This document shows positions 6,293 through 35,922 of a DNA stretch of 64,000 nt, one piece after another; the stretch's first letter is position 1; each line of letters begins with the position of its first letter. Both the position numbers and the translations under genes were made by a program. The stretch covers positions 11,347 through 75,346 of the forward strand of contig CAYYRJ010000011.1 of the NCBI GenBank assembly GCA_964474085.1. The letters are read 5' to 3'. This stretch comes from an uncultured Planctomycetales bacterium (GTDB taxonomy: Bacteria; Omnitrophota; Gorgyraeia; Zapsychrales; JANLHA01). A model generated the notes under the pieces. The model did not search any database and was not told where the DNA came from. It saw nothing but the letters and a program-made list of their open reading frames with translations.

Positions 6293-6820
6293 TCACCTCT
6301 TCTCTGTCTTCTTAATTGTTGCTTCTGGAAATTCTGATGGTTTCATAAACACTCCTTCTTTACACCAGCATTGAGCGAAATAGTAGTTTTTTTGGATTTC
6401 ACTATATGCAGCTTCGGATTCTTGTCCTTTCTGCAAAGCAAAGTAAGATTTCCCTTTAATTAATAAAGCAAGTCCTACAGTATTTAATGGTTTATGTTTA
6501 AATATCGCTTCTTTTGACATCCATTCGTATTCCTTGAGTGAATCTTGTATTGATTTCGCCTCTTTCATATTTGCATTGATCGCCTCATCAGCGTATTCAA
6601 TGGCTTTATCGAATCGTTTACCTCGATAGGCAATCTTAGCTTTGATTAGTATGGCATCGTCGTCTTCTTCATTTTCACTCGCTGCCGTCCAATCGTAAAA
6701 TCTCTTTTCACATATTCGGGAATAATCCAAAGAACCCCAAAAAGATGAAGCCTGTGCATTTCCCAGATCAACACTAAAGAATATGAGCATAACGACGGCA
6801 CATAAATAACGAAGTTTCAT
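6293..6820 (-). CDS. Secreted hypothetical protein (signal peptide, TPR-like helical repeats)
   Basis: MKLRYLCAVVMLIFFSVDLGNAQA signal peptide, followed by a helical-repeat-like sequence with regularly spaced A/Y/E residues. Confidence 0.4.
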   Translation of the reverse strand: MKLRYLCAVVMLIFFSVDLGNAQASSFWGSLDYSRICEKRFYDWTAASENEEDDDAILIKAKIAYRGKRFDKAIEYADEAINANMKEAKSIQDSLKEYEWMSKEAIFKHKPLNTVGLALLIKGKSYFALQKGQESEAAYSEIQKNYYFAQCWCKEGVFMKPSEFPEATIKKTEKR

Positions 6821-6827
6821 AATGGAA

Positions 6828-7655
6828 TTAACTCCCCTTAATTTTCTTTAAAAACTCACTTATCCCTTCAATAAAAACGGCCTTAGAGCGAAAATATCCG
6901 TCATTATGCCCTCCCCTAATTTTCAAAAACCCTTTCGGGACAGGTGCCTCGTCAAATAGCTTTTTGCCCATATAAAATGGGATGATGTCATCATCGATAC
7001 TATGAATAATCAGTTTAGGAGCGGAAACATTCTTAATTTTGTCAACTGAGTCCATTTTTGTCGAAATTAATGACCCGACAGAAATAGATGAGCTTGCATT
7101 GGCCATGTCAGAGATAGAGGTAAACGTAGAGTCGGCAATTAAGCCAGCAAATTCCCTTTTAGTGGCCAAATCTATGGCTATCGCCCCTCCCAATGATTCA
7201 CCATAAACGATTATTTGCTTAGAATTAAAATTCTTTTGCGTACCGAGATAATCGTACGCTGCTTCCGCATCTTGATAGACACCTCTTTCTGTCGGAACAC
7301 CTTCACTTTTTCCATACCCTCTATAATCAATAATAAAAACATTGAGACCTAAGTTATGGAAAGTCATGATTTTATCTAAGCGGTGAGAAATATTTCCTGC
7401 ATTACCATGAAAGAAAAGCAGTGTTCCTTTATTCTCCTCAGATTTAATAAACCATCCATTGAGTTTAATTCTATCCTGCGTCGTAAAGTAGATATCTTCA
7501 AATGAAAGACCTATCGATTGGGGACTACGCGAGACCTCCCGGTCAGGATAAAAAATTACTTTCCGCGCTAGCTTATCAATCGGATTTATTGAAGCACAGC
7601 TCGCGATCGTAAAAGCAAAAAGAATCAAAGGAATGTTTCTTATAGTTGTCGGCAT
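6828..7655 (-). CDS. Alpha/beta-fold hydrolase (lipoprotein). The start is reassigned to ATG 7655 (MPTTIRNIPLILFAFTIASCAS), so it no longer overlaps the upstream gene.
   Basis: HGNAGN oxyanion motif, GESLGG nucleophile elbow, and a C-terminal HNDGYF-type catalytic His region. Confidence 0.7.
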   Translation of the reverse strand: MPTTIRNIPLILFAFTIASCASINPIDKLARKVIFYPDREVSRSPQSIGLSFEDIYFTTQDRIKLNGWFIKSEENKGTLLFFHGNAGNISHRLDKIMTFHNLGLNVFIIDYRGYGKSEGVPTERGVYQDAEAAYDYLGTQKNFNSKQIIVYGESLGGAIAIDLATKREFAGLIADSTFTSISDMANASSSISVGSLISTKMDSVDKIKNVSAPKLIIHSIDDDIIPFYMGKKLFDEAPVPKGFLKIRGGHNDGYFRSKAVFIEGISEFLKKIKGS

Positions 7656-7656
7656 A

Positions 7657-8895
7657 TTATCTCGCTGTTGACATGCTACTAAAGCCGCCCTTGCGCTTTT
7701 TTGGTTGTTGCGTAATCTGTCCAGCTGCTGGGGCAGCATCATTTGCTACCCAAATATAATTGGCTTCATTAAGGACTTCGGGTTGATTTTCTACATTTTG
7801 CACATACGGGACATTTATTTGAGGAGGTAAATTATTGAGAACAGTTCTTGAGGAGTTAAATTGTCTTAATAGTCGAGACTCCTCCGGCTTGATCTCTTCT
7901 GTCTTTTCCAATTTAGCCAAACTAAAAACACCTCGAAATCCACGGCTATCATTCCATTGACCAAATAGTGCGTCTTTCGTTGGATCTATTTTGCCGTCAA
8001 TAACAGTTTTCACCTGATTGTTATCATAAAAAACATAATTAAACTCGCCGGTGCGTGAATTAAACTTCTTAATATTGCTTGGGTAAATATAAATGTTAGG
8101 AGCTAATTGCCCTTCCTGAATTTTACCTTGATCATCAACATTTAAATTAACTTGAATCAGTTGATTCCCGGGAAAAGTATAATCACCCGACCATACCCCG
8201 GCTAGATCAGCGGTTTCGAAAACAATCCCCTCTTGTGGTTTTGGAGGAAACGAAGAATAAACAATATCAACTTTATCGGACACCACAATATCAGCTGGCG
8301 TAATCATTTTTCTGTCCAAAGGTAATTCTCCACCGGTAATGTATCTAATAAACGCTTCGTGAGGTTGCCAACTGAGGTCGCCTAAGTTTACAAAATTTGT
8401 CAGTTGAAGTCCTATGGCAGCATCAACTGCTTTATAAATTAGCTCTGAACAATAAATTTTTTCATTGTCCCAATCATACTGAACGTCGTAAGGTAAACCC
8501 TTAAATTTATTAGCGGCTTTGATTATTTTAGGAATATCTCTCTGATATTTTTCTTTTAAGCGCACAATTGTGATCCTATGGCCTATACCACGATTTATCC
8601 ACGTGTTGAGCGGTGTCTCAATAACAGGTCCGATAGCTTCTAAAACATAAAAGTTGCTCTGCTTCTTAACGATAATTCCACAGTGAGAATACGGACTATT
8701 CGTAATATCGGCGATGACACGCGTCAAACGTCCCGGAAGATGTTGAAAAATAAAATCACCTTCACGGATATCTAAATCTTGAGAATAACTTAAGAACTTC
8801 TTATTTAAAACGACTGTCTCAGAATAGGCATTACTTATAAGAGGAAAGCACCAAACAATTTGAAATGCCAATATGAGTCTCAGAATTTTTTTCAT
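7657..8895 (-). CDS. Secreted protein with a YiiX/DUF830-like permuted papain-fold (NlpC/P60-like) amidase domain (tentative)
   Basis: Signal peptide MKKILRLILAFQIVWCFPLISNAYS. An SPYSHCGIIV motif resembles the catalytic Cys region of YiiX-family permuted papain-like hydrolases. Long C-terminal extension. Confidence 0.4.
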   Translation of the reverse strand: MKKILRLILAFQIVWCFPLISNAYSETVVLNKKFLSYSQDLDIREGDFIFQHLPGRLTRVIADITNSPYSHCGIIVKKQSNFYVLEAIGPVIETPLNTWINRGIGHRITIVRLKEKYQRDIPKIIKAANKFKGLPYDVQYDWDNEKIYCSELIYKAVDAAIGLQLTNFVNLGDLSWQPHEAFIRYITGGELPLDRKMITPADIVVSDKVDIVYSSFPPKPQEGIVFETADLAGVWSGDYTFPGNQLIQVNLNVDDQGKIQEGQLAPNIYIYPSNIKKFNSRTGEFNYVFYDNNQVKTVIDGKIDPTKDALFGQWNDSRGFRGVFSLAKLEKTEEIKPEESRLLRQFNSSRTVLNNLPPQINVPYVQNVENQPEVLNEANYIWVANDAAPAAGQITQQPKKRKGGFSSMSTAR

Positions 8896-8948: not shown

Positions 8949-9473
8949 TTACCCTTCTTGCAATTTATTGAGCCAATTATTTAAAACGACTGCCGCTGTT
9001 TTTTGATTTTGCTGATCCATAACAATCATTAAATCTTGTAAGATTTTGTTATAACCCGGCCAAATATCATCCAACATCTTTGAACCTTTGGCAGTAATTT
9101 TCATAATATTAACCCTCCGATCCCCCTCAAGAGCGGAGCGGGTGACAAAACCGTCTTTCTCCAACTTGTCGATGAGTTTAGTCATGTTGGAAGGAGTGAC
9201 AATCAATCGCTTACTGACTTCGACTTGCGGAATTCCCTTTTCGCCGCCTTGATGCTTAATGACCATCAAGATATTAAATTTTCCGAGAGTAAGATCAAAA
9301 TTTTCTAAGTAGGAAGAAGTTTTATCCGTGATGATGTTGTGTATTAACGCGAGGCTATATATTGCCTCTTCATAATACTTACCTTTCCCCTCTTCAACGC
9401 CGAATGACTTTAGCAAGCCCATATATTTTCCTCGATTTAAATAAAGTTTACTATTCAACAGTTTCTTTGTCAA
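8949..9473 (-). CDS. MarR-family winged-helix transcriptional regulator (the start may be the internal Met MGLLKSFG)
   Basis: Size and a central HTH-like segment (GIPQVEVSKRLIVTPSNMTKLIDKLEKDGFVTR...DRR) typical of MarR regulators. Confidence 0.6.
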   Translation of the reverse strand: MTKKLLNSKLYLNRGKYMGLLKSFGVEEGKGKYYEEAIYSLALIHNIITDKTSSYLENFDLTLGKFNILMVIKHQGGEKGIPQVEVSKRLIVTPSNMTKLIDKLEKDGFVTRSALEGDRRVNIMKITAKGSKMLDDIWPGYNKILQDLMIVMDQQNQKTAAVVLNNWLNKLQEG

Positions 9474-9785
9474 CTAATAATTTTAAAATAATTCCCTCTC
9501 ACTAGTCTGTGTCTGTATTCCCATAACATATCATTAACCCCCGGCGGGAGTCCCACAATGGGAATTTCGTTTTTAAGGATCAGGATTCTTTCAAACAATC
9601 TTCGCGCATTAACGTGCCCCCTCAATCGCTCCGCTAGCTTGTGATAACAAAGTTACAGCTCCCCTCCTCTTCCCCTTGATAGAGCAAGGCAAAAGATCCT
9701 ATCACTCACTCTAAGTATCTATTGGGGATATATTATATACCCCCCGCCGGCTCGCCAAAGGGGGATTTCGGTTTTTGGCGGTCCC

Positions 9786-9895
9786 AAATTACCGACCTTC
9801 AGGTACTCAACCTGAAGAATTTCTTACGTAACTTATTGGTAATGAAGGCTGATCGCCCGTGGTGGGTGGCTTGTGTGCCAGATTTGTGCCAATTC
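9786..9895 (-). pseudogene. Degenerate 3'-terminal remnant of a tyrosine-integrase gene of the same family as the int at 21058-22164. It includes the downstream hairpin and the 19-bp att-like core.
   Basis: Reverse-strand translation reads ...GTNLAHKPPTTGDQPSLPISYVRNSSG*. The int C-terminus reads ...GTNMAHRTPASTDSPSFPMGYK*. Both are followed by a cttcagg...cctgaag gtcgg hairpin (9786-9800 and 21028-21057). Confidence 0.5.
9874..9892. repeat. Left copy of a perfect 19-bp direct repeat, tgtgccagatttgtgccaa (candidate att core)
   Basis: Identical to 32749-32767. A 17/19 variant gtgccaTatttgtgccaG lies at 21108-21126 inside the int 3' end. Confidence 0.75.
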
Positions 9896-10359
9896 TATTG
9901 TGTGCGAATGTGAATGATTTTCTTCCCAACTGTATGAGCATAGGCCACAATGTCCCCGGTGCCTCCTAACCCGGCAGCCTTTTTCCCATCCCAAACTGCA
10001 ATCATAAAATCCGATTGATCTACAATTCTTTTTCCAGCCTCAAAATAACACGTCTCCCGTTCTTGATCCAGTTCCAATATCTCAACCTTATCCGCTTTTT
10101 TTAATAATTGCGAATATTCTTCCCTTAAATTTGAGTCTTGAAAAACAGTATCATAGTCTTTAAACGGCAATACAACCCACAAAGAACCGGAATGCTTTAA
10201 AATCGCCTTGGCAAAGACTTGATCTGCCCCCTTAGCCAATGAGGTTATTCCAATCACAGGCGATTCGATTTTCTTGAGATTTTCCTCTATCAAAGACTGT
10301 ATTTTAAGCCAATCGAATGGATTCTTTATTACTTGATGTCCCGTGATACCAATTTTCAT
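9895..10359 (-). CDS. SLOG-superfamily (YpsA/DprA/LOG-like Rossmann) protein, a predicted nucleotide/NAD-derivative binding protein
   Basis: MKIGITGHQ...GITSLAKGADQVFAKA...VVLPF...MIAVWDGKKAAGLGGTGDIVAYA matches the SLOG/YpsA architecture. Last gene of the NAD cluster. Confidence 0.4.
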   Translation of the reverse strand: MKIGITGHQVIKNPFDWLKIQSLIEENLKKIESPVIGITSLAKGADQVFAKAILKHSGSLWVVLPFKDYDTVFQDSNLREEYSQLLKKADKVEILELDQERETCYFEAGKRIVDQSDFMIAVWDGKKAAGLGGTGDIVAYAHTVGKKIIHIRTQ

Positions 10360-10409
10360 AAATCAATCCAATAGTAATTTCTCACAATCATTAAATTTGA
10401 TGGCAAATG

Positions 10410-10706
10410 CTATTCTATCAATTTATGGTAAGGGTTTTTAATTTCCGCAAAATCTTTGCCCACTTTGCGATATTCAGCCCATAACAATACATCTCTATAA
10501 TCCATTTTGGCGTGTTTAACATATTCACGCAGCTTTGCTAATTCTCCCTCAGAGCACTTTAAAATCGCAAGATGAACCCTACTAGATTCGTACTCATACT
10601 CTTCTTTGCCATAATCATCCAATATCTTAAGAATTAAATCCATCTTGTGTTGAGGAAATAATTTATTAACAGCTTTTTTCACATGATTTCTTGAATAGAG
10701 AACCAT
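10410..10706 (-). CDS. Hypothetical protein (98 aa)
   Basis: ORF in a co-directional tight array. No motifs. Confidence 0.35.
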   Translation of the reverse strand: MVLYSRNHVKKAVNKLFPQHKMDLILKILDDYGKEEYEYESSRVHLAILKCSEGELAKLREYVKHAKMDYRDVLLWAEYRKVGKDFAEIKNPYHKLIE

Positions 10707-10715
10707 AAATCCTGC

Positions 10716-11093
10716 TTATCTCATATAATGCCAATAAAATACCCATGAAAGAGTAGATCTTACAGTTGACAACTTAAAACCTTTTTGAGATTTATAAAAT
10801 TCCTTATCAAATCCTTTATAACAACCTGAAATATCTTTCTGTTTACCGTAAATACTAAAATTCTCGCCAAATTGCTCCCGATGTTCCCTTATAAACTGAA
10901 TTGCATCCTGATAATGTTTGATAGCCTTATTTAGAACGCTTTGATATTTTTTATCGTCATAACCTGACACACGTCTCTTCAAAGCACGACAAGCAGCCTT
11001 ATAGGATCCGTAGCTATCGTAATCAATAAAGAGCTGAGCAACTTGGATAGCCTCTTCCAATAAATCTTTTTTCTTTTTTTTGGGTTTAATCAT
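10716..11093 (-). CDS. Hypothetical protein (125 aa)
   Basis: ORF in a co-directional tight array. No motifs. Confidence 0.35.
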   Translation of the reverse strand: MIKPKKKKKDLLEEAIQVAQLFIDYDSYGSYKAACRALKRRVSGYDDKKYQSVLNKAIKHYQDAIQFIREHREQFGENFSIYGKQKDISGCYKGFDKEFYKSQKGFKLSTVRSTLSWVFYWHYMR

Positions 11094-11109
11094 TTTTTAA
11101 AAGCAAATT

Positions 11110-12102
11110 TTAGAATTTATTAAAAGATTTCAATACTTTTTTAACTTCGACCATGCGTTGTTCAAGTTTGCCTCTTAAAACAAAATAGGGAATTTTACGT
11201 TTTGTTAAATCTTTAATTATTTCTTCCTGAAAAATTGTCCTATTGGCATCACCAGATCGATCCCATGTATCATCGTATGGAATATCAACATCACAAACAA
11301 AAACAACATCATACCGCCCGACGCATTGGTCAGCTAAATCAGTGAGTCTTTCGTGAGCAGAGCCATGATAATACTGTGAGAATAAATACGTTGTTAGCGC
11401 ATTCGTATCTGAGAATAGAAATCTATTGGCTTCGCAAAGAAGTTTTTCTTCTCGCTCTAAATGACCTTCGGCGATCTCCACTAATTGCTCAAGCGTTAAT
11501 CTCCTATCTTTTTGATGCTTGTCCCAATATTCTCGGCCATATTCAGGCATCCAGACCGTTTTGAAATTCTTTGCTAGTTTTTGAACAAGCGTTGTTTTAC
11601 CCGTCGATGGCGCGCCCAAGAACACAATATTCATGACGAGGTCTTTATAAACAAAAGGATCTACATAATTTCGATATCGATAAGGATTCTTTCTGATCTG
11701 CGTAGCTGAAATTGAGATCTGCTTCCTTTTTTCATCGATCCTGCGATCCACTGCGGCCAATGACATACTCATATGTTCTCCGTAGAATTCACTTGAATAA
11801 AAATGTGTGATCTTACGGTCGCCTAGAATTCTTTTCACATACTTTTCCTGCATACGTTTAATTTTAGACGTATTCCCCATCCCGGCGGGACCATCCCAGG
11901 CTTCAATCACTTCGACTTGAGGATATAATTTTCTGATCCACCCTGCACGAACATCCAAAGGGATCTTAGTTGTTTCAGGACAGTTATAAATGAGAACGAT
12001 AAGCTGATCAACTTCGGCAAGAGCGGTTTCGATAAGATATTGATGCCCTTTGTGAAAAGGAGCGAATTTTCCTAACGTCAGTCCGACACGCTGTGTGGTC
12101 AT
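11110..12102 (-). CDS. nadR: Bifunctional NMN adenylyltransferase / ribosylnicotinamide kinase (NadR-like, without the N-terminal HTH)
   Basis: N-terminal nucleotidyltransferase HxGH motif (GKFAPFHKGHQYLI). C-terminal P-loop (FLGAPSTGKTTLVQKLA) is typical of the RNK domain. Confidence 0.75.
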   Translation of the reverse strand: MTTQRVGLTLGKFAPFHKGHQYLIETALAEVDQLIVLIYNCPETTKIPLDVRAGWIRKLYPQVEVIEAWDGPAGMGNTSKIKRMQEKYVKRILGDRKITHFYSSEFYGEHMSMSLAAVDRRIDEKRKQISISATQIRKNPYRYRNYVDPFVYKDLVMNIVFLGAPSTGKTTLVQKLAKNFKTVWMPEYGREYWDKHQKDRRLTLEQLVEIAEGHLEREEKLLCEANRFLFSDTNALTTYLFSQYYHGSAHERLTDLADQCVGRYDVVFVCDVDIPYDDTWDRSGDANRTIFQEEIIKDLTKRKIPYFVLRGKLEQRMVEVKKVLKSFNKF

Positions 12103-12686
12103 GTTTTGATCAAAAGGGATTTTATAGATTTTGATTCAAAAGATTTTTTCCATTCCAAGAGGCCAAAGATAGCCAAAAATAAAAATATAGTGTAAAGGCC
12201 TGACGTAAAATAGAGCTGTTTATACCAAAAAACGCCAACGGCCATAACATCCACCGCAATCCAAAAAAGCCAAGACTCTAGTTTCTTTTTTGTCAAAAGC
12301 CACTGTGCGATTAAACTCATAACAGCAATAAACCCGTCAAGATAAGGTACAGACGCATCCGTGTAACGATGCATTAAATATCCCCAAACACCCGTGATGC
12401 AAACTCCCAATACAATCCATAAAACAAGATCTTTCACAGTTAGTCTTGTCACTTTGAGAGGAGTTTTATTTTTACCGCCGTACAACCAGTTATACCAACC
12501 ATAAAGCTGCAGAGCGACATAAACAATCTGTAAAATAAAATCCGAATACAGTTTCGCCTGATAAAAAACAAAAATGTAAAGAACAACCTGCACTAATCCC
12601 GTTGGCCAACTCCAAATATTCTCGCGTACCGTAAGCCAAACACAACTGATCCCAAAAATCGTTCCTACTATTTCTATCCAATTCAT
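12099..12686 (-). CDS. pnuC: Nicotinamide riboside transporter PnuC
   Basis: 195-aa polytopic membrane protein with a Trp/Tyr-rich PnuC-like sequence (WLTVREN, WPTGLVQV). Overlaps the nadR-like gene by 4 nt. Confidence 0.65.
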   Translation of the reverse strand: MNWIEIVGTIFGISCVWLTVRENIWSWPTGLVQVVLYIFVFYQAKLYSDFILQIVYVALQLYGWYNWLYGGKNKTPLKVTRLTVKDLVLWIVLGVCITGVWGYLMHRYTDASVPYLDGFIAVMSLIAQWLLTKKKLESWLFWIAVDVMAVGVFWYKQLYFTSGLYTIFLFLAIFGLLEWKKSFESKSIKSLLIKT

Positions 12687-12692
12687 CGAGAA

Positions 12693-13346
12693 TTAAAATC
12701 CCAAAGTATCCGAATTAATAATCGCAACACCTTTAGACTGCATTTCTTCGATTGCACGATCCGTATCGTTTGTATGAAGATTAACCCCACGACAAGCGTC
12801 TTTGATCAAATAAGTTTTAAACCCTGCTTCAGCAGCATCTAAGGCCGTAAACTTGACGCAATAATCCGTAGCAAGACCAACCACATATATCTCCTGAACA
12901 CCTTGAGCCTTTAAATAGTCATCCAAGCCCGTCTTTTTCTTATGCCCATTATCAAAAAACGCACTATAACTATCAATCGCCGGATCAGTTCCCTTTTGAA
13001 ATATCTGCTTAATTTTTTTAATGACGAGATCCTTAACTAAAGCGGCCCCTCGGGATCCTTGAACACAATGATCTGGCCATAAAATCTGCTTTAATCCATT
13101 AAGTTCAATAACCTCCCCAACATTTTTACCGTTATTGCTTGCAAAACTTTTATGGTTCTGTGGATGCCAGTCTTGCGTAGCGACTATAAAGTCAAACTTG
13201 TTTTGTAGTTTATTTATTAACGGGACAATCTGATCCCCTTCTTTGACTGCAAGAGCTCCGCCGGGACAAAAATCATTTTGTATATCGACGATAATAAGTG
13301 CTTTCTTTTTCATAGCTTTATCCCTACCCGATGGGTGTCGCGCCAC
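12693..13346 (-). CDS. pncA: Nicotinamidase/pyrazinamidase PncA (isochorismatase family)
   Basis: ALIIVDIQNDFCPGGALAV catalytic Asp region, DWHP metal-binding motif and catalytic Cys (DYCV). Confidence 0.8.
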   Translation of the reverse strand: MARHPSGRDKAMKKKALIIVDIQNDFCPGGALAVKEGDQIVPLINKLQNKFDFIVATQDWHPQNHKSFASNNGKNVGEVIELNGLKQILWPDHCVQGSRGAALVKDLVIKKIKQIFQKGTDPAIDSYSAFFDNGHKKKTGLDDYLKAQGVQEIYVVGLATDYCVKFTALDAAEAGFKTYLIKDACRGVNLHTNDTDRAIEEMQSKGVAIINSDTLGF

Positions 13347-14808
13347 GATCTTTAAGAATCAAATCCATTTTTAGTTTAAATAAAGATTTTTCCAGTCCAA
13401 CGGGAAACTCATGTGGATTAACAAAACGTTTGATCCCCAAGTGAAATTTTGCCAAATTATTTTTGGCATAAGTCCTCACATCATCAATCGGGGGACTTTT
13501 ATAAACCTTTTCACCTCTCTGAAATATTGTTACCAAAAGATCTTCATAATTTGCGTCCGGTCTTATAGTCTTTTGGCGGGTCATATCTTTGGGATCCACC
13601 ATCGTACAACCACGAGCTAAATCCGTCCCCTCATCAAAAATAACGTCAGCAATAATTTCTTTATCATTAAAAAATCTACGCACTTGCTGTATTCCCGGAT
13701 TTGATACTTTAATATTTTGCTCAGAAAGTTTAACCTTATAACTCCACTTTCCATTCTTATTCTTTATCGCGGCAAGTTTATAGACTCCGCCCAAAGCAGG
13801 TTGATCATAAGCGGTCACCAATTTTGTCCCAACACCCCAGATTGAAATCTTTGCTCCTTGGTCTTTGAGGCTTTCAATAATATTTTCATCCAATTCATTA
13901 CTGGCGACGATTTTGGCATTTGGGAAACCACCCTGATCTAAAATATTTCTTGCTTCAATACTTAAATAAGCTAAATCGCCCGAATCTAAACGAATCCCTA
14001 TCATTTCGTGGCCATTTTTTCTAAGCCAGTTCCCAACCTCAACAGCTTTCTTAACCCCCTCCAAAGTGTCATAAGTATCGACTAAGAAAACACAGTTATT
14101 CGGCATAGCCTTGGCATATTCTTTGAAGGATTCCAACTCATTGTCAAAAGACATAACCCAGCTGTGAGCATGAGTCCCCTTAACCGGGATCCCGAAAATT
14201 TTTCCCGCCAAGACATTTGATGTTGCACCACATCCGCCGATATATGCTGCCCGTGAGGCGGCTAATGCTCCATCGATTCCCTGCGCTCTTCTTAATCCAA
14301 ATTCGAGAACCTCATCACCCTGAGCCGCAAAACATACCCTCGCCGCCTTAGTTGCTATCAAAGATTGGAAGTTGATAATATTAAGCAAAATTGTTTCTAA
14401 AATCTGGCACTGAATTAACGGTCCTTTGATGCGTAAAAGCGGTTCATGCGGAAAGACAACTGTGCCTTCCGCTATCGCATCGACATCGCAACTAAATTTC
14501 ATTTCCGTTAGATAATTTAAGAATTCTTTCTCAAATATCGGTTTATTATCATTCCCTTTGAGTGTCGCTAAATATTCGGCATCAGTGCTGTCAAATTTGA
14601 ATTCATTCAGAAAATTAACTACCGTTTCTAATCCGCAAGCAATGACAAATCCTCCATTAAAGGGATTTTTTCTGAAAAACAAATGAAAAACGGACTCCTT
14701 CTCATGGATGTTCGCTTTCCAATAACCATAGGCCATGGTCATCTGGTAAAGGTCTGTCAATAATGAGAACGACTGTGTGTATGGGAAATAATTATTATTC
14801 ATGGTCAC
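13324..14808 (-). CDS. pncB: Nicotinate phosphoribosyltransferase (long PncB/NAPRT type)
   Basis: N-terminal LLTDLYQMTMAYGYWK matches the conserved NAPRT N-terminal motif. Length 494 aa. Confidence 0.7.
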   Translation of the reverse strand: MTMNNNYFPYTQSFSLLTDLYQMTMAYGYWKANIHEKESVFHLFFRKNPFNGGFVIACGLETVVNFLNEFKFDSTDAEYLATLKGNDNKPIFEKEFLNYLTEMKFSCDVDAIAEGTVVFPHEPLLRIKGPLIQCQILETILLNIINFQSLIATKAARVCFAAQGDEVLEFGLRRAQGIDGALAASRAAYIGGCGATSNVLAGKIFGIPVKGTHAHSWVMSFDNELESFKEYAKAMPNNCVFLVDTYDTLEGVKKAVEVGNWLRKNGHEMIGIRLDSGDLAYLSIEARNILDQGGFPNAKIVASNELDENIIESLKDQGAKISIWGVGTKLVTAYDQPALGGVYKLAAIKNKNGKWSYKVKLSEQNIKVSNPGIQQVRRFFNDKEIIADVIFDEGTDLARGCTMVDPKDMTRQKTIRPDANYEDLLVTIFQRGEKVYKSPPIDDVRTYAKNNLAKFHLGIKRFVNPHEFPVGLEKSLFKLKMDLILKDRGATPIG

Positions 14809-14811
14809 TCC

Positions 14812-16401
14812 TTAAATTTTTCGACAAACTAATAATATGTTCGTTTCTGGATAATTCATCAGTTCTAGTTTTTCCCGATCCATCTCAAAAAGAGCAGCCT
14901 TCCCTGAATATCGGTTGTTTATAATCCATGAGTTAGCATAGGCCTTACTACCTGCATCTAGCTGAAAACCAACTTTGGTCAATTCGCGCTTCCAGTCCGA
15001 GAAGCTCCAAAAACAAAATGTTTCGTGCATTTCACTTTGCCAATTATCAACATAATCCTTCTTCGAGAGAAATTCGCAAGTATCTTGAAATCTCAGATTT
15101 ATAAAGTCCTCATTATTGATCTTTTTTATCTCATATCTCAAAAAATGATTCTCAAACTTTGAATAATCTCTCGCAAAACGTAAGAATTTCGCAAATGTTG
15201 ATAATCCTTTTAAATAAGAAGCTAAATCAGCCCGATCATTAAAATCTTTTTCAAAATCATCATTCCTGCCATCTGCTTGAGTTAATTTCAAGAACACCAT
15301 TCTTTCTTTATTCTCTGGGCCAACAACATCTCTATTGATCCAAACTCCGCCGGGCTTTAATTCTAAAAAACGATTTTGAAGAAATCTCAGCAAATCTTGT
15401 CTGCCGCCGTATGATTCAATCTCATGTGTTAAAGAAGAAGTATGAATCGTATTCATGGAATCTTTTTCATACACCAAATCCATCACCGCATTTTTTTGCG
15501 AAAAGAAAACAAACGGATTCTTAAATTCATTATTATGTTTCCTTTGCACACAAATATCATAAAGATGTCTTGCCGCCTCAACTCCATACAAATCACTTTC
15601 CCGAAACTGTGGATCCGCGCTAACCATTTTTATCCACGACCCAACAGCACAACCGATATCTCCAATCCGTCCCGGTTGAATATAGGGAGCGGTGTCTTGA
15701 TATTTGAGGTCGGCAATATCATCCATTTGCCGAACATAGCTGTTATAGTCTCTTGTCGAAGTGATATCTCCATCATCACCGACGATCTTGTCAGTAAAGA
15801 GCATTTTAACTTTGTCGGCTAATCCATATTGTTCCCAAATTCTTAATGACGCAGGATGAATTTTGCCTATGAGATCTTTCTGCTCTTTCCATTGCTTTGA
15901 CTGTGCAATTTGCTCAACAAGATGCCACGGATTTTCAGTTTTCACTTTATATGTGACTTTATCAACCAATTCAGCAGGTAATATTTTAAAACCCAAAGCC
16001 TCATACATTTCTAAAACCGGCGTCGAGCAAAGAACCAATGTATTAGCCGGGGACAGATCCAACAATCCATCACTCTCGTGCTTAATTTTCTTTAATGTAT
16101 AATTTGTAAAATCATTTAAATGCCCGACATCGTCTATCCCGTAGATATAGCAAGGAACACCCCGATCCTCAGAAAATTCCTGCAAAGCCATCGCTCGTAA
16201 ATAAAAAGGCAATGGGTTTCTTCTGGTATTTGAGTGGTTCGCGGAAGTCACGGCATAAATGATTCCCTCAATCACAACTTTAGGTAATGGTTTCCCATTA
16301 ACATCAATTTCGCCTTCACACTGCGAATCAATGAGGCGCTTCAAATAATTAAACTGAAAATTAGTCAGTAAATGATGTCTGCCGGGAAACAGAATGTACA
16401 T
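14812..16401 (-). CDS. Hypothetical two-domain protein: an unknown N-terminal domain (FPGRHHLLT, TSANHSNTRRN) plus a C-terminal class-I SAM-methyltransferase-like fold
   Basis: C-terminal half carries DIGCAVGSW (motif I-like) and LKPGGVWI (post-II-like). The N-terminus has nucleotidyltransferase-reminiscent but non-canonical motifs. Confidence 0.35.
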   Translation of the reverse strand: MYILFPGRHHLLTNFQFNYLKRLIDSQCEGEIDVNGKPLPKVVIEGIIYAVTSANHSNTRRNPLPFYLRAMALQEFSEDRGVPCYIYGIDDVGHLNDFTNYTLKKIKHESDGLLDLSPANTLVLCSTPVLEMYEALGFKILPAELVDKVTYKVKTENPWHLVEQIAQSKQWKEQKDLIGKIHPASLRIWEQYGLADKVKMLFTDKIVGDDGDITSTRDYNSYVRQMDDIADLKYQDTAPYIQPGRIGDIGCAVGSWIKMVSADPQFRESDLYGVEAARHLYDICVQRKHNNEFKNPFVFFSQKNAVMDLVYEKDSMNTIHTSSLTHEIESYGGRQDLLRFLQNRFLELKPGGVWINRDVVGPENKERMVFLKLTQADGRNDDFEKDFNDRADLASYLKGLSTFAKFLRFARDYSKFENHFLRYEIKKINNEDFINLRFQDTCEFLSKKDYVDNWQSEMHETFCFWSFSDWKRELTKVGFQLDAGSKAYANSWIINNRYSGKAALFEMDREKLELMNYPETNILLVCRKI

Positions 16402-17337
16402 TTAAACCACCAAATACCCTTTCTTATCGGCAACCCCTATGGTTGCCTTGACACCCGAATTAAATTCAAGAAAATCATCTTCGATCCCATCGCTAAAAAT
16501 AACACCTCGTTCCGGCATCTGTGAAGTTAAGACCAACGGCTGCTGGCTCGTAACTTTCCCAAATACCAACTGTGCCTGAGATGTCTTGCTGGGCCATGGC
16601 TCTCGGACTGTATAGTATAAAAAATTGGAATCCCAATTAAAACCTTTAATCTTCTCAACATCCAAAGGATTCCCAAAAGCGGCACTAATGCCATTGGCTT
16701 CCGTTAAAATACTTTTTAGCCATCCGGTTGAACCTAGGCCTGTCGAGACAATGATCCCACTCGAAGAATGTTGTTCCATCGCCTTCCCAAGACTGATCTG
16801 ATATCTGATCGAAGTGTGAGTTTTCGGTCCAATAAAGAAATCATTAACCGCGTACAACTTCTGACCATTATTTAAATCTACTTGTGCCATAGTTATATGT
16901 TTAAAAGGTCGAAACTTTTGCAAAACATCAGAAATGATATTCCTGACATCCTCGACTCCAAAAGGCAATAAAACACCTTCCCAACGCTTTGGATCAGGAT
17001 TAACAGCGATTACCGGCTGGCCATTAAGATATTTTATCGTATTGGCCACCAAACCATCCTGACCCAAAACGAGAACAGTGTCGTTTTTCCCAAAAATAAA
17101 ATTAGGAAGAAATGCTCGATCTAATACTTGAACATGGGCTAAACCCTGCAATTGCACCTTGGTCTGTTCAAGAGCCTTCTTGTAATTCTGATTTTCAATT
17201 TCATAATCAGAAAAGTCAGCCCCGAGATGCTCTATGTAGAATTTAGCTTGGTTTAAAGTATTAAACCGAGCAATCAATTCTTCCAGCCTAGTCCTCCTAA
17301 CGACGAGGATAATTTTATTTTCTTTAGTATTTTGCAT
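16402..17337 (-). CDS. NAD(+) kinase-like (ATP-NAD kinase/diacylglycerol-kinase fold) protein
   Basis: GQDGLVANT resembles the GGDG(T/N) motif. SGIIVSTGLGSTGWLKS resembles the NAD-kinase DGxxxSTPTGSTAYS motif. Confidence 0.5.
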   Translation of the reverse strand: MQNTKENKIILVVRRTRLEELIARFNTLNQAKFYIEHLGADFSDYEIENQNYKKALEQTKVQLQGLAHVQVLDRAFLPNFIFGKNDTVLVLGQDGLVANTIKYLNGQPVIAVNPDPKRWEGVLLPFGVEDVRNIISDVLQKFRPFKHITMAQVDLNNGQKLYAVNDFFIGPKTHTSIRYQISLGKAMEQHSSSGIIVSTGLGSTGWLKSILTEANGISAAFGNPLDVEKIKGFNWDSNFLYYTVREPWPSKTSQAQLVFGKVTSQQPLVLTSQMPERGVIFSDGIEDDFLEFNSGVKATIGVADKKGYLVV

Positions 17338-17338
17338 T

Positions 17339-18364
17339 TTACTTTCCTGCTTTAGCTAACTCTCTTAACAGATCTGGAGAAATATTCAATTCTCCGATCT
17401 TACCGGCACTCTCAGCTAATTCTTTGAAGCTCAAAGCAATCAATTGATTTGGTTGCATATTCATGCTCGCCAAAGAATTGATAACTTTGGGATCAACCTT
17501 CTTGAATGTATCCATAAGCACTCCGAGGCTGTAAGCCTTTGCATCAGCTTCGAGTTTTTGATTTCCAACGCTGAGAGTAACGAGTTCTTTGTTTTTCTCC
17601 TCGATGGTGATCCTTCCAACCATCTCTTCTTCTCGGATGAGTCTTTGTTTTTCTTGAACAGACCTCTCAGCATCCATTTGAGCTTCACGAATTTGACGTC
17701 GCTTGTTTTCTACGGCAATTTCGGTATTAAGCTCATTCTCCTTGATAGCACGTTCTTGTTCGACAGCAGAATTACGTCTAGCGTAAATCGCTTCATCTGC
17801 ATCCTTGAGAAGCTCTTCTCGTATTTCCGCCTCCAAAGCACGTGCTGTTTCCGGATTAGGCTTAACAGCTAAGATCGATAGATCCAAAATCTCAACACCT
17901 AGAGATTTTAAAACCTCAGCATTAGCTAATGCTTGCCTGACACGTTGAACAAGATTATCCGATGTTCTCAAAACCTCCCGCAACTTGACAGTTTCTAACT
18001 CTTTTCTCACCAGAACTTGGATAAGATTCACTATCCGTTGTGGAAGCTGATCATGATCATCAGAATCAAACGAATTGATCTGCTGCCTATTAGGATCAAT
18101 AGTGAAATCGAGCATTTGAGCTAACTTTTTTGGGTCAGCTACCCTAAAGGCAACTTGCCCTTGCACCGATATTTCCTGATAATCAGCAGTAACTTCCTTG
18201 AATATAAAAGGAACGTCGGTACTGGCAATCGGGACGGCGACTAAAGAAGTCGTCGGGGCAAAATAGAAGAAAGACAACCCTATTCCCTCCCTCACCAATT
18301 TACCATTTTTGTACTGCAATAAATACACTGTTGGATCCACTTTAATAAACTTTATGCCAAACAT
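17339..18364 (-). CDS. SPFH/band-7 (flotillin-like) domain protein with a long coiled-coil region
   Basis: N-terminal SPFH-like region, then an extended E/R/K/Q-rich heptad region (EQERAIKENELNTEIAVENKRRQIREAQMDAERSVQEKQRLIREEE). Confidence 0.65.
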   Translation of the reverse strand: MFGIKFIKVDPTVYLLQYKNGKLVREGIGLSFFYFAPTTSLVAVPIASTDVPFIFKEVTADYQEISVQGQVAFRVADPKKLAQMLDFTIDPNRQQINSFDSDDHDQLPQRIVNLIQVLVRKELETVKLREVLRTSDNLVQRVRQALANAEVLKSLGVEILDLSILAVKPNPETARALEAEIREELLKDADEAIYARRNSAVEQERAIKENELNTEIAVENKRRQIREAQMDAERSVQEKQRLIREEEMVGRITIEEKNKELVTLSVGNQKLEADAKAYSLGVLMDTFKKVDPKVINSLASMNMQPNQLIALSFKELAESAGKIGELNISPDLLRELAKAGK

Positions 18365-18710
18365 TTTGGGCCTCCTTTTTGGTTAAAACATCCTTTTCAT
18401 TAAAATCAGGGCTAATCTCATGAACCCATGCGCGATATAGTTCATACTTCAAGTTATCAAGAATCTTATTAACGAATTTCAGATCCTTTTTATTGATCTC
18501 CTCTTTTAAGGAAATTTTATATTCCAAGAATCCTTCAGCATCCCAAAAAGCCTCGCGCCATGCCAAATAATTCTCTTTATTGAGCCGATTATCGGACAAG
18601 TACTTCTTAAAGATTGGAATAAAACTGGACCAATATTCCTCACGGATAGTGACCAAAAGCGTCTCGGTGATGTTTAAAACCCTAATTGTGTTTTTGTATT
18701 TCATGGCCAC
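18342..18710 (-). CDS. Hypothetical protein (122 aa)
   Basis: ORF. 3' overlap with the SPFH gene suggests translational coupling. Confidence 0.4.
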   Translation of the reverse strand: MAMKYKNTIRVLNITETLLVTIREEYWSSFIPIFKKYLSDNRLNKENYLAWREAFWDAEGFLEYKISLKEEINKKDLKFVNKILDNLKYELYRAWVHEISPDFNEKDVLTKKEAQNVWHKVY

Positions 18711-18720
18711 CCCCTTTGCT

Positions 18721-19470
18721 CTATATCTCGAATATGAATCCCCGGTCCTTTAACTGCTTATATTTTGCTTCGTCAAACTTATATAATCTGGCTGCCCGAT
18801 GAGAGACATCCATTTCAACTTCATCCAGCTCTTGCAATAAACCCATGCTTAAAATTCGCTTCCTAAAATTCCGTTTATCCAACTTCTCCTCTAGAATCTT
18901 TTCGTACATTTGTTGAAGTTGAGTGAGGGTAAACTTTTTCGGCAATAATTCAAATCCGATCGGTTCGTATCTCACTTTGGCTTTTAATCGTTTTAACGCT
19001 ACCGCAAAAACCTCATCATGATCAAAAGCTAACTTCGGCATATCGTAAACTGAAAACCATGCTGCATCCCTTGCATCTGTTGTCGCTTTAATCTTGTGAT
19101 CTCGCAAATTTACCAATGCGTAATAGGCGACTGATACAACTCTCTCTCTTGGATCGCGGTCAGGTTTGCCAAATGTATAAAGTTGCTCCAAATATACTTT
19201 TTCAATCCCTGTTTCTTCCTTTAATTCTCTTTGGGCCGTTTGCTCTAAAGTTTCTTCCATCATCACAAAGCCACCGGGTAAAGCCCACTTTCCTGCAAAA
19301 GGTTCTAAATCTCTTTGTATTAAAATTACTTTTAAATCTTCATCATCTAATCCAAAAACTACGCAATCGATTGTTAAACTTGGTCTGGGATATTTATACG
19401 TGTATGTCATCTTTTTCTCCTTTGGTGTCTCATCTACACTAAGCATAGTGTCACATATACACTTTGTCAA
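18721..19470 (-). CDS. nrtR: NrtR-like Nudix-related transcriptional regulator: an ADP-ribose pyrophosphatase-like Nudix domain plus a C-terminal winged helix. The start may be the internal Met MTYTYKYP.
   Basis: Nudix box [30 protein letters not shown]. The C-terminal [28 protein letters not shown] matches the conserved NrtR wHTH signature. Sits at the head of the NAD salvage cluster. Confidence 0.6.
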
Positions 19471-19524
19471 GAAATATTTTTGTCTTTAAAAGATGGGGAA
19501 AATACTACTAAAAATGCGTTATCT

Positions 19525-19560
19525 CGATATATATTTACCGACGGGTGGGGGTGTCAAAGA
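19525..19560 (-). promoter_or_regulatory. Sigma70-like promoter for nrtR: -35 TTGACA (plus 19552-19557), 18-nt spacer, AT-rich -10
   Basis: Reverse strand reads ctcTTTGACAcccccacccgtcggtaaaTATATAT. Same cassette as at int and hsdR. Confidence 0.5.
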
Positions 19561-19721
19561 GGGGATTTTCCCAAAAGATACTACCCCTCACTCTAAGTTT
19601 CTTTTGGGGATATGTTGATACATGGGCCGGGAGTCCCAAAAGGGGGATTTCGGTTTTAGAATCGTTTTGTTAAAGAGGCCTTTATTAAGAAATTTCAGAA
19701 TACTCCAAATTTATTCCACTT

Positions 19722-20917: not shown

Positions 20918-21057
20918 TCTCTCTCACAAGGTCTATTGGGAGTATATAACATAAATTACTTTCGTGCAACTAAATTTAGTTGCATTATATCCCAATATTA
21001 AAAATTGTAAAGAAAAATATTTTTAACCCGACCTTCAGGATTTGAACCTGATTAATT

Positions 21058-22164
21058 TTATTTGTAACCCATTGGGAACGATGGGCTATCTGTTGAGGCG
21101 GGTGTCCGATGTGCCATATTTGTGCCAGCTTTCGGAAGATCGCTCAGGTTGAGCGACTGGACCGCACGCTGTTTATGGCTGCAACTGAGGTGGGAATAGC
21201 GCAGAGTCATTTCGATGGTCTTGTGGCCGAGCAGTTCTTTCACGGTAATTAGATCCACCCCGGCCATGACAAGTTGCGAGGCGAAGGTATGTCTAAGATC
21301 ATGAAACCGAAAGTTCTCAATCTTCGCCTTCCCCAAGGCAGTATGAAACGACTTTTTGATATCGTTAAACGGCTTGCCATCAAAGCTGGCAAAAACGTAT
21401 GGGCTTTCTGGATCCTTTCTGACGCGGTAAAGAATATCGCGCACAGCATCATTGATCGGGACCTCACGCTGTTCGCCGTTCTTGGTCTGTAAAATGTGAA
21501 TCAACCCGTGGGCCATATCAACATTATTCCATTTTAAATTAAACACCTCTCCCTTTCGCATCCCGGTGTTAATCGCAAACTGTACGATATCCTTTAAATG
21601 ATCTTCGCAATGGTCGAGTAGCCGCTGAATATCCTCCTTCTCAAGAAACCGGATCCGCTTATTATCCACCGGCAAAAATTTAAAACCATGAACAGGATTG
21701 CGGCCACCAAAATATTCCCACTCAATCGCCTTGTTAAACATATTTCGTAAAATACCCAAATCTTTGTTCACCGTGTTAGGTACGATCGGTTTTTGACTAC
21801 GTGGATTTGTGTGCTGTAGCCGCCAATCAACATATTTCTCGACGTCACGCTGAATGATCTCATGAAGATACTTACTACCAAAATAACTCGTAAGATGACG
21901 GACATTACTGATCGATGACTTATGCCATCCGCGCAAGGTCCTCTTGCAATGCCGCTCGAGATACTCCACAGCGAAATCTTTAAACTTGATCTTCTGCTCG
22001 CGCTTAATATCTAGGTGCTTGTTCTCCGCGACCAGAGTTAATCGCTTTTGAAGAATCTTCAAAGCGATTGCTTTATTAGGCCCGACCATTTCACGTTTGC
22101 GCACTCCTTCTGCGGTGAAATAATCAACACCCCAAACCTTTCCTCTTTGGAATACTCTTGACAT
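21058..22164 (-). CDS. int: Tyrosine-type site-specific integrase (phage integrase family)
   Basis: C-terminal catalytic region with R...HDLRHTFASQL...LGHKTIEMTLRYSH (R-H-R-Y tetrad context). An N-terminal SAM-like/arm-binding region. The 3' end contains the att-like core variant at 21108-21126. Confidence 0.85.
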   Translation of the reverse strand: MSRVFQRGKVWGVDYFTAEGVRKREMVGPNKAIALKILQKRLTLVAENKHLDIKREQKIKFKDFAVEYLERHCKRTLRGWHKSSISNVRHLTSYFGSKYLHEIIQRDVEKYVDWRLQHTNPRSQKPIVPNTVNKDLGILRNMFNKAIEWEYFGGRNPVHGFKFLPVDNKRIRFLEKEDIQRLLDHCEDHLKDIVQFAINTGMRKGEVFNLKWNNVDMAHGLIHILQTKNGEQREVPINDAVRDILYRVRKDPESPYVFASFDGKPFNDIKKSFHTALGKAKIENFRFHDLRHTFASQLVMAGVDLITVKELLGHKTIEMTLRYSHLSCSHKQRAVQSLNLSDLPKAGTNMAHRTPASTDSPSFPMGYK

Positions 22165-22228
22165 AGTTTAATTATAACACCCGATATAATGGGGTGTCAA
22201 TGCTGGCGCACCCTAGTATAATAGGTGC
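22165..22228. promoter_or_regulatory. Divergent promoter region for int and the XRE gene. Leftward: TTGACA (plus 22195-22200), 17 nt, TTATAAT (plus 22171-22177), ending about 7 nt from the int ATG. Rightward: TAGTATAAT 5 nt before the XRE ATG. Both transcripts are probably leaderless.
   Basis: Read directly from the sequence. The -35 context ggggtgtcaa is shared with the nrtR and hsdR promoters. Confidence 0.55.
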
Positions 22229-22441
22229 ATGAAAATTGAATTGCGATTTATTATCAGTCAAAAAATAAAAAAGATTAGATCAAAGCTAAAATTAACCCAA
22301 GAGCAACTTTCCGAAACTTCTGGCGTAGGGTATAAATATCTTCAAATGATTGAAGGGAGCAATCCCCCAAACATATCCTTGAAAACGATCGAAAAACTAG
22401 CCAAAGCCCTCAAGACCACCCCCGCAAACCTTCTTAAATAG
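22229..22441 (+). CDS. XRE-family HTH transcriptional regulator (candidate island master repressor)
   Basis: LKLTQEQLSETSGVGYKYLQMIEGSNPPNISLKTIEKLAKAL is a classic Cro/C1-type HTH. Divergent from int. Confidence 0.7.
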   Translation: MKIELRFIISQKIKKIRSKLKLTQEQLSETSGVGYKYLQMIEGSNPPNISLKTIEKLAKALKTTPANLLK

Positions 22442-22628
22442 CCATCTCTTTCACTTTCCGCCGCTCCAGCCACTCATCGATCTCTGATTTTCGGAATTTC
22501 ACCAGCCGCCCAACCTTGTAATACGGGATCTGCCGGCAATGTGTCCAGCTATAAATCGTACTAGCCCTTACATGTAAATACCGTGTGAGCTCGTGTATTC
22601 CCATCATATTTTCTATCTCATTTTTCAT
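22434..22628 (-). CDS. AlpA/excisionase-like DNA-binding protein
   Basis: 64 aa. ...IHELTRYLHVRASTIYSWTHCRQIPYYKVGRLVKFRKSEIDEWL is an AlpA/Xis-type HTH with its YxxxxxxFPxP-like pattern. Confidence 0.6.
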   Translation of the reverse strand: MKNEIENMMGIHELTRYLHVRASTIYSWTHCRQIPYYKVGRLVKFRKSEIDEWLERRKVKEMAI

Positions 22629-32442: not shown

Positions 32443-32689
32443 TGGGGTATATGCTCTCTGATCTTTAACTTACTACGGGCGATGTATTCGCCGATTTATC
32501 ATGATACCTTCCGGGTCATCCACTGCCACCAACTTTAAAGCCCGGTTACCTATATCCGGGCCAAGTATTCAACGGTGTATGTATCTGCTGAGATCATTAA
32601 AATTCCGCTATGGGCTATTCAAAATATTCAGTATTGTAACATTGTTACCTTTTTCCTGCCACCATTTCCATCCGATAAGTCTATTGCCT

Positions 32690-32722
32690 CATTATATATA
32701 AACCACCGTACAGGGGTGTCAA
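32690..32722 (-). promoter_or_regulatory. Sigma70-like promoter for the hsdRMS-kinase operon: TTGACA (plus 32717-32722), about 17-nt spacer, ATATATAAT
   Basis: Reverse strand reads ctTTGACAcccctgtacggtggtttATATATAATgag. Shares the ggggtgtcaa -35 context with the nrtR and int promoters. Confidence 0.5.
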
Positions 32723-32748
32723 AGGGAGGATTTTGGTATGCCAAAAAT

Positions 32749-32767
32749 GTGCCAGATTTGTGCCAAC
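32749..32767. repeat. Right copy of the perfect 19-bp direct repeat tgtgccagatttgtgccaa (candidate att core). It is embedded in three 11-bp periods beginning TGCCA.
   Basis: Identical to 9874-9892. The reverse-strand translation of the flank again gives an integrase-tail-like VGTNLAH. Confidence 0.75.
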
Positions 32768-35911: not shown

Positions 35912-35922
35912 CTTTTATCCGC

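Follow-up and report, generated by a model that had tools for sequence, protein, structure and literature searches.

A promoter-like sequence module of about 95 nucleotides (nt) was found in five copies at the unit boundaries of an island array in a 64,000-nt stretch of DNA from an uncultured bacterium, apparently a member of the Omnitrophota (contig CAYYRJ010000011.1, assembly GCA_964474085.1). This whole stretch is referred to as the window. The array is a tandem series of integrase-mobilised units downstream of a tRNA-fMet gene, between this gene and marR/rtcR. The module copies are spread over 9.5-32.7 kb of the minus strand, each oriented into the unit it precedes. Family membership, copy number, orientation and junction positions are reported with high confidence. 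With moderate confidence, the module is interpreted as a promoter-like entry element that travels with the islands and persists at their junctions.

On this interpretation the module would act as an entry promoter of the sigma-70 type, preceded by an A-tract element, and would belong to the conserved backbone or the attachment (att) flank of this island lineage. Every arriving island would bring a further copy into the array, and this copy would remain as a fossil once the island decays. As the first element of a unit, the module follows either the arm-type repeats, at the tRNA-proximal end of an island with int, or the hairpin and linker behind the 3′ end of the integrase gene int, where the next, older unit begins.

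The module family and its copies

The sequence-only reading had described three separate motifs, (a), (b) and (c). Alignment of 11 copies in register (alignment A2), drawn from four genomes and one metagenome contig, traced all three to a single module of about 95 nt (about 95-110 bp). An nhmmer profile made from the (c)(b)-type copies alone recovered both (a) copies (E=3e-8 and 1e-4), and the 5′ copy of the related locus L084 is a natural hybrid, AAAACCGAAATCCCCCCTTTGACACCCC, in which the (c) core is joined to (a). By the alignment and these cross-type matches the motifs are parts of one family. On the minus strand the module reads AAAACCGAAATCCCCCC-TTTG(ACA/GGG), a variable GC-rich spacer, ATATAT and then ..AAnAnACTT; the consensus of the alignment is GTAATTTTAGGnnnnCnAAAACCGAAATCCCCCCTTTG[GGA/ACA]CCCC..ATATAT..GGnAAnAnACTT. 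Conservation follows this block structure, with a mean pairwise identity of 0.82 in the core AAAACCGAAATCCCCCCTTTG plus TTTG, 0.52 in the next 20 nt (the spacer), 0.73 in the ATATAT block and about 0.33 in the flanks. Across the copies, TTTG and ATAT stand at a fixed distance of 20-22 nt.

A profile built solely from loci outside the window found exactly five copies in the 64 kb, all with E≤3e-7 (minus-strand matches 9794-9697, 19661-19576, 32737-32671, 9580-9514 and 19568-19505); the next-best match had E>0.5, and no copy was found by profile search in the other 41 kb of the window. Direct comparison of the copies gave a repeat of about 86 nt covering (b) and (c), 9690-9778 versus 19572-19657, with 87-88% identity (repeat finding, blastn), and a 47-nt repeat, 19523-19569 versus 32688-32734, with 74% identity. 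A third, weaker (c) copy at 9545-9575 is 87% identical to 19628-19658, and GGGGGATTTCGGTTTT occurs twice exactly and once with three mismatches (9559). The copies at 9.5/9.7 kb and at 19.55/19.6 kb form tandem pairs with little or nothing in between. In the pair of copies flanking the NAD-salvage unit, the core is identical at 19 of 19 positions. The orthologue of copy 5 in L084 (141-234) has the (c) core fused to TTGACACCCC. Coordinates are collected in Table 1.

The individual motifs were largely recovered. Motif (a), GGGGTGTCAAWG, had been placed upstream of nrtR, int and hsdR, and matches were found at 19548, 22191 and 32713 (three, against 0.33 expected). Motif (b) was present at its two places (9707-9731 and 19589-19613, as a 25-nt pattern, with 0 expected by chance). 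For (c), the three copies stood but the palindrome attributed to them did not: GGGAGTCCC occurs only at 9546 and 19629 and is missing from 9746-9778. The 9.5-kb site, described as (c) alone, turned out to be a whole module at 9490-9589.

Several other interpretations of the repeated sequence were discarded. A miniature inverted-repeat transposable element or other small mobile repeat was ruled out: the longest inverted match between the module ends is only 3-8 nt, so that there are no terminal inverted repeats, and the copies have a single orientation and occur only at island junctions. GC-rich palindromes are present in the spacer of most copies, yet their position and sequence vary in the alignment, and a conserved spacer dyad operator was rejected. 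Upstream of hicA (about 20921-20955), something similar to (b) was spotted by eye but dropped, as no profile detects it. Background from the cyanobacterial highly iterated palindrome HIP1 was likewise set aside, with two occurrences of GCGATCGC against 0.9 expected.

The module is narrowly distributed. No copy was found in 80 genome loci (about 1.1 Mb) of integrase relatives at ≤54% identity. In the metagenomes of the Joint Genome Institute, a degenerate 20-mer gave 61 exact matches, of which the contig L144 holds the only full-length relative and nearly all others are due to chance. IMG/VR contained no relative of the module, its single match being a chance one in coding sequence. Because the module is confined to junctions in the window and is missing from the distant integrase loci and nearly all metagenome matches, it is by these scans not the organism's generic promoter consensus; this outcome, named beforehand as one that would speak against the sequence-only reading, was encountered neither in the window nor in the integrase loci scanned.

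Table 1. Coordinates of the module copies, module blocks, promoter-like sites, candidate att features and genes in the window.
Feature	Position	Strand	Description	Support
Copy 1	9490-9589	-	complete, diverged (c)+(b)-type, upstream of marR	nhmmer E=2.6e-19 ((c)(b) profile), 4.5e-9 (external)
Copy 2	9691-9794	-	(c)+(b)-type, after int-remnant hairpin and linker GGTAATTTGGGACCGCC	nhmmer E=3.9e-25, 1.9e-18
Copy 3	19501-19569	-	(a)-type, TTGACA, entry of NAD-salvage/nrtR unit	nhmmer E=3e-7 (external), 1e-4 ((c)(b)-only)
Copy 4	19573-19671	-	(c)+(b)-type, tandem, directly before copy 3	nhmmer E=3.7e-21
Copy 5	32657-32744	-	(a)-type, TTGACA, first island B element after three arm-type repeats, toward hsdR	nhmmer E=3.4e-12 (external)
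Module block 1		-	A-tract and C-rich, AAAACCGAAATCCCCCC; motif (c)	
Module block 2		-	TTTG, then ACA, GGG or GGA; -35-like; motif (a) if TTGACA	
Module block 3		-	variable GC-rich spacer, length fixed	
Module block 4		-	ATATAT, -10-like; with block 5, motif (b)	
Module block 5		-	short conserved downstream ..AAnAnACTT..; with block 4, motif (b)	
marR promoter-like site	9445-9473	-	TTGACA-N17-TAAACT, between copy 1 and marR	10/12 matches
nrtR promoter-like site	19442-19470	-	TTGACA-N17-TATGCT, overlaps GTGT-N7-ACAC palindromes	10/12 matches
int promoter	22171-22200	-	TTGACA-N18-TATAAT, within int-xre switch region; no clear module-family member	
Three tandem TGGCA(C/T)A repeats	32737-32765	-	11-bp period; candidate arm-type sites, int-distal end of island B	likewise L003 6856-6890
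Two TGGCACA repeats	21110-21127	-	inside int 3′ end; candidate arm-type sites	
Two TGGCACA repeats	9874-9891	-	start of int remnant; similarity to int begins exactly here	
Hairpin CTTCAGG-N7-CCTGAAG	9797-9817	-	after int remnant; tRNA-arm-like; candidate att core or int 3′ structure	
Hairpin TCAGG-TTCAAAT-CCTGA	21035-21051	-	directly after int stop codon	
tRNA-Met(CAT)	44556-44632		start of array; initiator-like as read from sequence, called tRNA-fMet	
Island C	32918-44554		11.6 kb, XerC-like integrase	bounded by 48-nt exact repeat of tRNA-fMet 3′ end
Displaced tRNA-fMet 3′ fragment	32870-32917	-	tRNA end of array	48-nt exact direct repeat of 44555-44602
tRNA terminator and spacer	left of 32870			
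Island B	down to 21058		type I restriction-modification (RM), Ser/Thr kinase, Prim-Pol/PriCT/AAA_25, HTH_17 (Xis/AlpA-like; 22434-22628), XRE (22229-22441), int	Pfam, gene context
int	21058-22164	-	tyrosine integrase of island B	Pfam Phage_integrase 2.8e-39, plus Int_N/SAM_5
hicA, hicB, orf147	between int hairpin and NAD-salvage unit		block	
NAD-salvage unit	9895-19410		nrtR, SPFH, pncB, pncA, pnuC, nadR-like, YpsA-like	
int remnant	9821-9891		last ~23 codons of int, own hairpin 9797-9817	71% identical to int 3′ end
marR	8949-9422		start at 9422	exact product match
Seven more genes	3896-8895	-	C92 peptidase to DUF1375	
rtcR	2249-3874		convergent	

Junction positions and candidate attachment features

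Four close relatives of the integrase (81-88% identity), at loci L002, L003, L084 and L085, were compared together with their flanks. The module recurs at two positions despite differing cargo. The first lies behind the integrase gene, in the order int stop codon, hairpin CTTCAGG-N7-CCTGAAGG, linker (G)GCGGTAATTTTAGGnCGCC, module, and is seen at 9.7 kb in the window and in L002 (11135-11236), L084 (10965-11064) and L085 (11135-11236). The hairpin after int is itself conserved in all four relatives. The second follows the arm-type repeats, in the order tRNA fragment, terminator, spacer, two or three TGGCACA repeats, module, and is seen at 32.7 kb in the window and at 141-234 in L084, one of three related loci. 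At this int-distal end, L084 shows the tRNA T arm, terminator, spacer, TTGGCAGAAATCCGGCAGA and then AAAACCGAAATCCCCCCTTTGACACCCC...CATATAAC...AAGAGACTT. Behind the module, each case has cargo unrelated to that of the others: hsdR/hsdM, nrtR with NAD salvage, a Dam-type methyltransferase, AbiEi/AbiEii, an Xis-like remnant, or marR. The sequence-only reading had offered, as one of two options, a promoter-bearing repeat that spreads with the islands, and this fits copies that lie at unit boundaries and at equivalent junctions elsewhere with unrelated cargo. The leader of about 250 nt between the entry module and hsdR (32443-32690) is about 80% conserved relative to that between the module and hsdM (L084 235-430); it contains a near-palindrome, GTAACAATGTTAC, and a GCCCGG..CCGGGC hairpin.

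L085 holds a second copy (b, 11433-11530), whose end is about 20 nt from the stop codon of the convergent rtcR gene; this copy probably represents the hotspot's native chromosomal flank. Between the two L085 copies (11249-11440) there is a lone small Xis/HTH_17-like open reading frame, apparently all that is left of an island that has decayed. In L002, an int-tail remnant followed by a 3′ fragment of tRNA-fMet is found at 15143-15265. Contigs with the same MarR, RtcR or orf147 revealed no empty site and, except for L148, had an unchanged arrangement, and a look-up of enolase for an empty site or alternative array found nothing. L148, from another sample and with the same marR, matches the window without a difference over a segment that starts at the TGGCACA repeat, takes in both modules and extends to marR. 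To the left of this repeat (1-80) it has unrelated sequence of about 70% GC, either an alternative junction or an assembly chimera (2.8x coverage).

The direct repeats embedded in int are probably arm-type sites of the integrase. Of 84 loci of the wider integrase family, 18 have a two-unit repeat, and the units are regarded as candidate arm-type sites because both change together across the family (TAGCACA/TAGCACA, GGGCACA/GGGCACA, TTGCACA/TTGCACA and, at further loci, TGGACAC/TGGACAC). TGGCACA-N4-TGGCACA recurs at the int-distal end of island B and of L003. DNA-level conservation of the nGCACA-N4-nGCACA repeats within the integrase gene extends to relatives with about 37% protein identity. 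A sigma-54 reading of TGGCAC-N5-TGGCA was rejected, given that the variants TAGCACA and TTGCACA are without the GG and that the units vary together.

The hairpin directly behind int resembles the anticodon arm or the T arm of tRNA-fMet, with 21036-21050 as a 15-nt exact match to the T arm. In more distant relatives of the integrase, int is followed on the same strand, after about 50-130 nt, by a complete tRNA gene, of many specificities. It seems that in the lineage of the window the tRNA target has been replaced by a tRNA-arm-like hairpin site. Three candidate crossover positions, each within about 150 nt of the module, were noted: the arm repeats, AATTT(T)AGGCC, and the loop of the hairpin or tRNA arm. 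The second of these lies between hairpin and module and also in the tRNA-side spacer, as GATGAATTTAGGCC.

With all copies within about 150 nt of candidate att features (arm repeats, hairpin), the core AAAACCGAAATCCCCCCTTTG could be an att identity block or the site of an accessory recombination protein (Xis/AlpA or a host bending protein), and the promoter look incidental. The core is indeed the best-conserved block of the module (0.82), and in the two copies flanking the L084 island it is identical at 21 of 21 positions, the remainder of the module differing; the 19 of 19 identities around the NAD unit point the same way. Against this, L003 (int 81% identical, xis present) carries no module at either end of an apparently intact 4.2-kb island, which is flanked by 18-nt exact repeats at the equivalent position downstream of the tRNA. 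Identity between the window and L084 is about 97% from the tRNA up to GAATTTAG and about 65-75% before the arm repeats, and because it falls there, the island boundary lies upstream of the module. The (a)-type cores, moreover, have no inverted-repeat half-sites around a 6-8-bp overlap. An att core is expected at both ends of every functional island, whereas L003 and the more distant relatives have no module. From the intact, moduleless L003 island and the position of the boundary we argue that the module itself is not the att core, and a role as recombination element is considered rather unlikely.

A bolder proposal joins both roles, so that the module would be a landing-and-expression pad, a recombination-accessory site plus entry promoter, with which this integrase lineage would stack unrelated defence or metabolic islands one-way behind tRNA-fMet. 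A standard element upstream would then drive the expression of every newcomer, which would functionally amount to an integron-like platform of whole islands in an uncultivated phylum. We regard this as improbable.

Promoter-like geometry and its alternatives

The interpretation as an entry promoter draws on sigma-70 geometry: two conserved blocks with a free spacer between them and A-tracts upstream. A perfect TTGACA is present in three of the 11 copies (19.55 kb, 32.7 kb and the 5′ copy of L084). In L003, the same place after three arm repeats is occupied by a canonical TTGACA-N17-TATATT, which shows no sequence similarity to the module.

Several observations weigh against promoter function. 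Eight of the 11 copies keep only TTG of the -35 hexamer (TTGGGA, TTGGGG, TTGGCG), and a sigma-70 consensus scan flags no copy, the -10 being without T at position 6 at 16-18 nt spacing. Between module and gene, marR, nrtR and the abiEi gene of L002 have better promoters of their own (10 of 12 matches, or canonical). The copies at 9.7 and 19.6 kb precede only another module, and copy b of L085 meets the 3′ end of the convergent rtcR; because only another module or a convergent gene end follows, many copies are not needed as promoters. Finally, the best-conserved block, the 21-nt core, lies upstream of the -35, and its identity in the two copies flanking the L084 island would be explained by a recombination or protein-binding role as well. 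Judged from these sequence features, promoter activity of the module is about evenly balanced between presence and absence. The (c)(b)-type copies may be weak or dead; of all copies, those of TTGACA type at 19.55 and 32.7 kb are the likeliest to be active.

Part of the same evidence would suit remnants of flanks, duplicated by successive integration and decay as accretion scars and without a present role. The tandem pairs at 9.5/9.7 and 19.55/19.6 kb adjoin with nothing between them, copy b of L085 faces the end of a convergent gene, and the downstream genes own separate promoters. Neutral decay is not expected, however, to yield blockwise conservation and a 20-22-nt spacing maintained in four genomes, and the TTGACA-type copies precede long operons with no other strong -35 nearby. 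A functionless fossil is thought unlikely.

The sequence-only reading had also proposed co-regulation of nrtR, int, hsdR and marR through the palindrome GGGAGTCCC, by one MarR or XRE factor. The palindrome occurs twice against 0.17 expected, TTGACACCCC..GGGTGTTA is common to the int promoter and the L084 entry module, and a profile of three sequences of (a) alone reaches the int promoter, at a marginal E=0.039. Nevertheless, the palindrome is missing from three of the five window copies, other copies having GGGGGCCCC, GGCGAGCC or ACACCCC in its place, and it falls in the variable spacer, the least conserved segment of the module. The marR and nrtR promoters are separate, and nrtR has GTGT-N7-ACAC sites of its own; in L084, the dyad of the int promoter (ATACCGC/GCGGTAT) is unlike that of the entry module (ACACCC/GGGTGT). 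The proposal is not supported, and a common regulon is very improbable. The two GTGT-N7-ACAC palindromes in the nrtR promoter (19430-19470) look like NrtR operator sites and suggest autoregulation.

Nor did the int promoter keep its place among the sites of motif (a). It shares only GGGGTGTCAA (about 10 nt), is not followed by the claimed ggatttt and is at best a marginal member, unreported by the family profiles at E≤10. The 64-nt int-xre intergenic region is 94% identical to that of L085, and its spacer dyad shows compensatory changes between relatives (ACACCC/GGGTGT, CACCGC/GCGGTG, ATACCGC/GCGGTAT). The int promoter is better explained by this separately conserved int-xre switch than by the module family. 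The region (22165-22228) is divergent, and the -10 lies about 6 nt before the int ATG, so the int mRNA would be near-leaderless.

On the plus strand, (b)(c) could represent the 3′ end of a small RNA or an intrinsic terminator, for example that of rtcR, duplicated by integration into it. A scan marks TCCCACAATGGGA+ATTTCGTTTT at 9551-9563 as terminator-like, the L085 module lies about 20 nt past the rtcR stop codon in that orientation, and for the 19.6-kb copy a folding energy of -17.1 kcal/mol (z=-1.9) was obtained. When ten copies were folded as plus-strand RNA, though, z ranged from -1.9 to +1.1 with no common structure, and the (a)-type copies have no hairpin. Rfam has no family matching the (b)(c) region at the gathering threshold (a P15 match with E=0.4 is at chance level), and no plus-strand gene runs into any window copy. 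This origin is highly improbable.

The island array and comparable systems

In the first 45 kb of the window, the minus strand carries nearly all genes. From the tRNA onward, the units follow each other as island C, island B, the hicBA/orf147 block, the NAD-salvage/nrtR unit and the marR block. As in an accretion array, an element with an integrase gene lies beside units without one, tRNA-fMet stands at the array end, and the unit boundaries carry directly repeated att-related sequences (TGGCACA repeats, hairpins and the five module copies). The nearest named homologues of the integrase are from Candidatus Omnitrophota/Omnitrophica.

Tandem accretion of integrative elements and decayed cis-mobilizable elements (CIMEs) at one att site is known, e.g. 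for ICESt1/ICESt3 of Streptococcus thermophilus (PMC5704250). The likeness is close, with tandem units by one target gene, one intact integrase, and older units that are int-less and keep directly oriented internal junction repeats. Here, however, the junction repeat is a promoter-shaped module of about 95 bp beside the att features and beyond the att identity block, and the element has int, xis and prim-pol, with no conjugation genes seen. Islands specific for dusA replace the 5′ end of their target gene and supply putative -35/-10 elements (PMC4482086). There, too, a promoter-like sequence sits at the extremity of an integrase island and hence at the junction after each integration. Theirs faces outward and keeps the disrupted target gene expressed, whereas here the TTGACA-type copies are directed into the cargo of their own island, the remaining ones stand ahead of the next unit, and there is no target gene under repair.

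Small islands with integrase, AlpA, primase and defence genes include P4-like satellites, phage-inducible chromosomal islands (PICI) and phage-inducible chromosomal minimalist islands (PICMI) (PMC10085698, PMC8628076, PMC10803314). Island B resembles them in its int, HTH_17/AlpA-like gene, XRE gene and Prim-Pol/PriCT/AAA_25 replicase and in its defence-type cargo (type I RM, Ser/Thr kinase), its relatives carrying AbiE, Dam and BREX-like genes. It differs in that no capsid-hijacking or packaging genes were identified in it and that the host phylum is apparently Omnitrophota.

In an integron, intI and attI are accompanied by the promoter Pc, which reads into the cassette array. The tyrosine recombinase locus, the one-way array of unrelated cargo and the promoter at the array entry are reminiscent of this arrangement. 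Unlike cassettes, the units here are multi-gene islands of 1.4-13 kb with promoters of their own, and no attC-like imperfect inverted repeats were noticed at the unit ends, no integron-directed test having been made. The integrase here is a phage/island-type enzyme with an arm-binding N-terminal domain; it moves together with the island and shares the orientation of the cargo. The module, for its part, stands before each unit instead of once. In a lambda-type attP, the core is flanked by arm-type Int sites. The repeats adjoining the module are similar in being direct 7-mers with an 11-bp period, two int-proximal and three int-distal, whose variants co-change; this likeness concerns the candidate arm sites next to the module and not the module itself.

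The array is a lineage-specific variant of an ordinary genome architecture and not a new regulatory system. What appears particular is a promoter-shaped module of about 95 bp before every unit, confined to one lineage, apparently of the Omnitrophota, which is known only from metagenomes. The module can serve as a sequence marker of unit boundaries in the tRNA-fMet island hotspot, where older boundaries are hard to see once the integrase is lost. It also illustrates that motifs common to "unrelated" promoters can reflect descent of an island backbone rather than a regulon. Should the TTGACA-type copies be active, they would provide a natural portable promoter for a phylum without genetic tools.

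The cargo of island C comprises the XerC-like integrase (43545-44444), GmrSD-HNH (41358-42602), a resolvase (38057-38605), an XRE-SocA/Panacea gene (36263-37075), an AAA kinase-like gene and a GNAT protein. On the opposite strand, 26 nt at 44496-44521 repeat the 5′ half of tRNA-fMet in inverted form (88%); this copy immediately adjoins the 3′ end of the tRNA and the beginning of island C. The NAD-salvage operon under NrtR, which also encodes YpsA/SLOG-like, SPFH and methyltransferase-like proteins, is a mobile-looking unit between defence islands.

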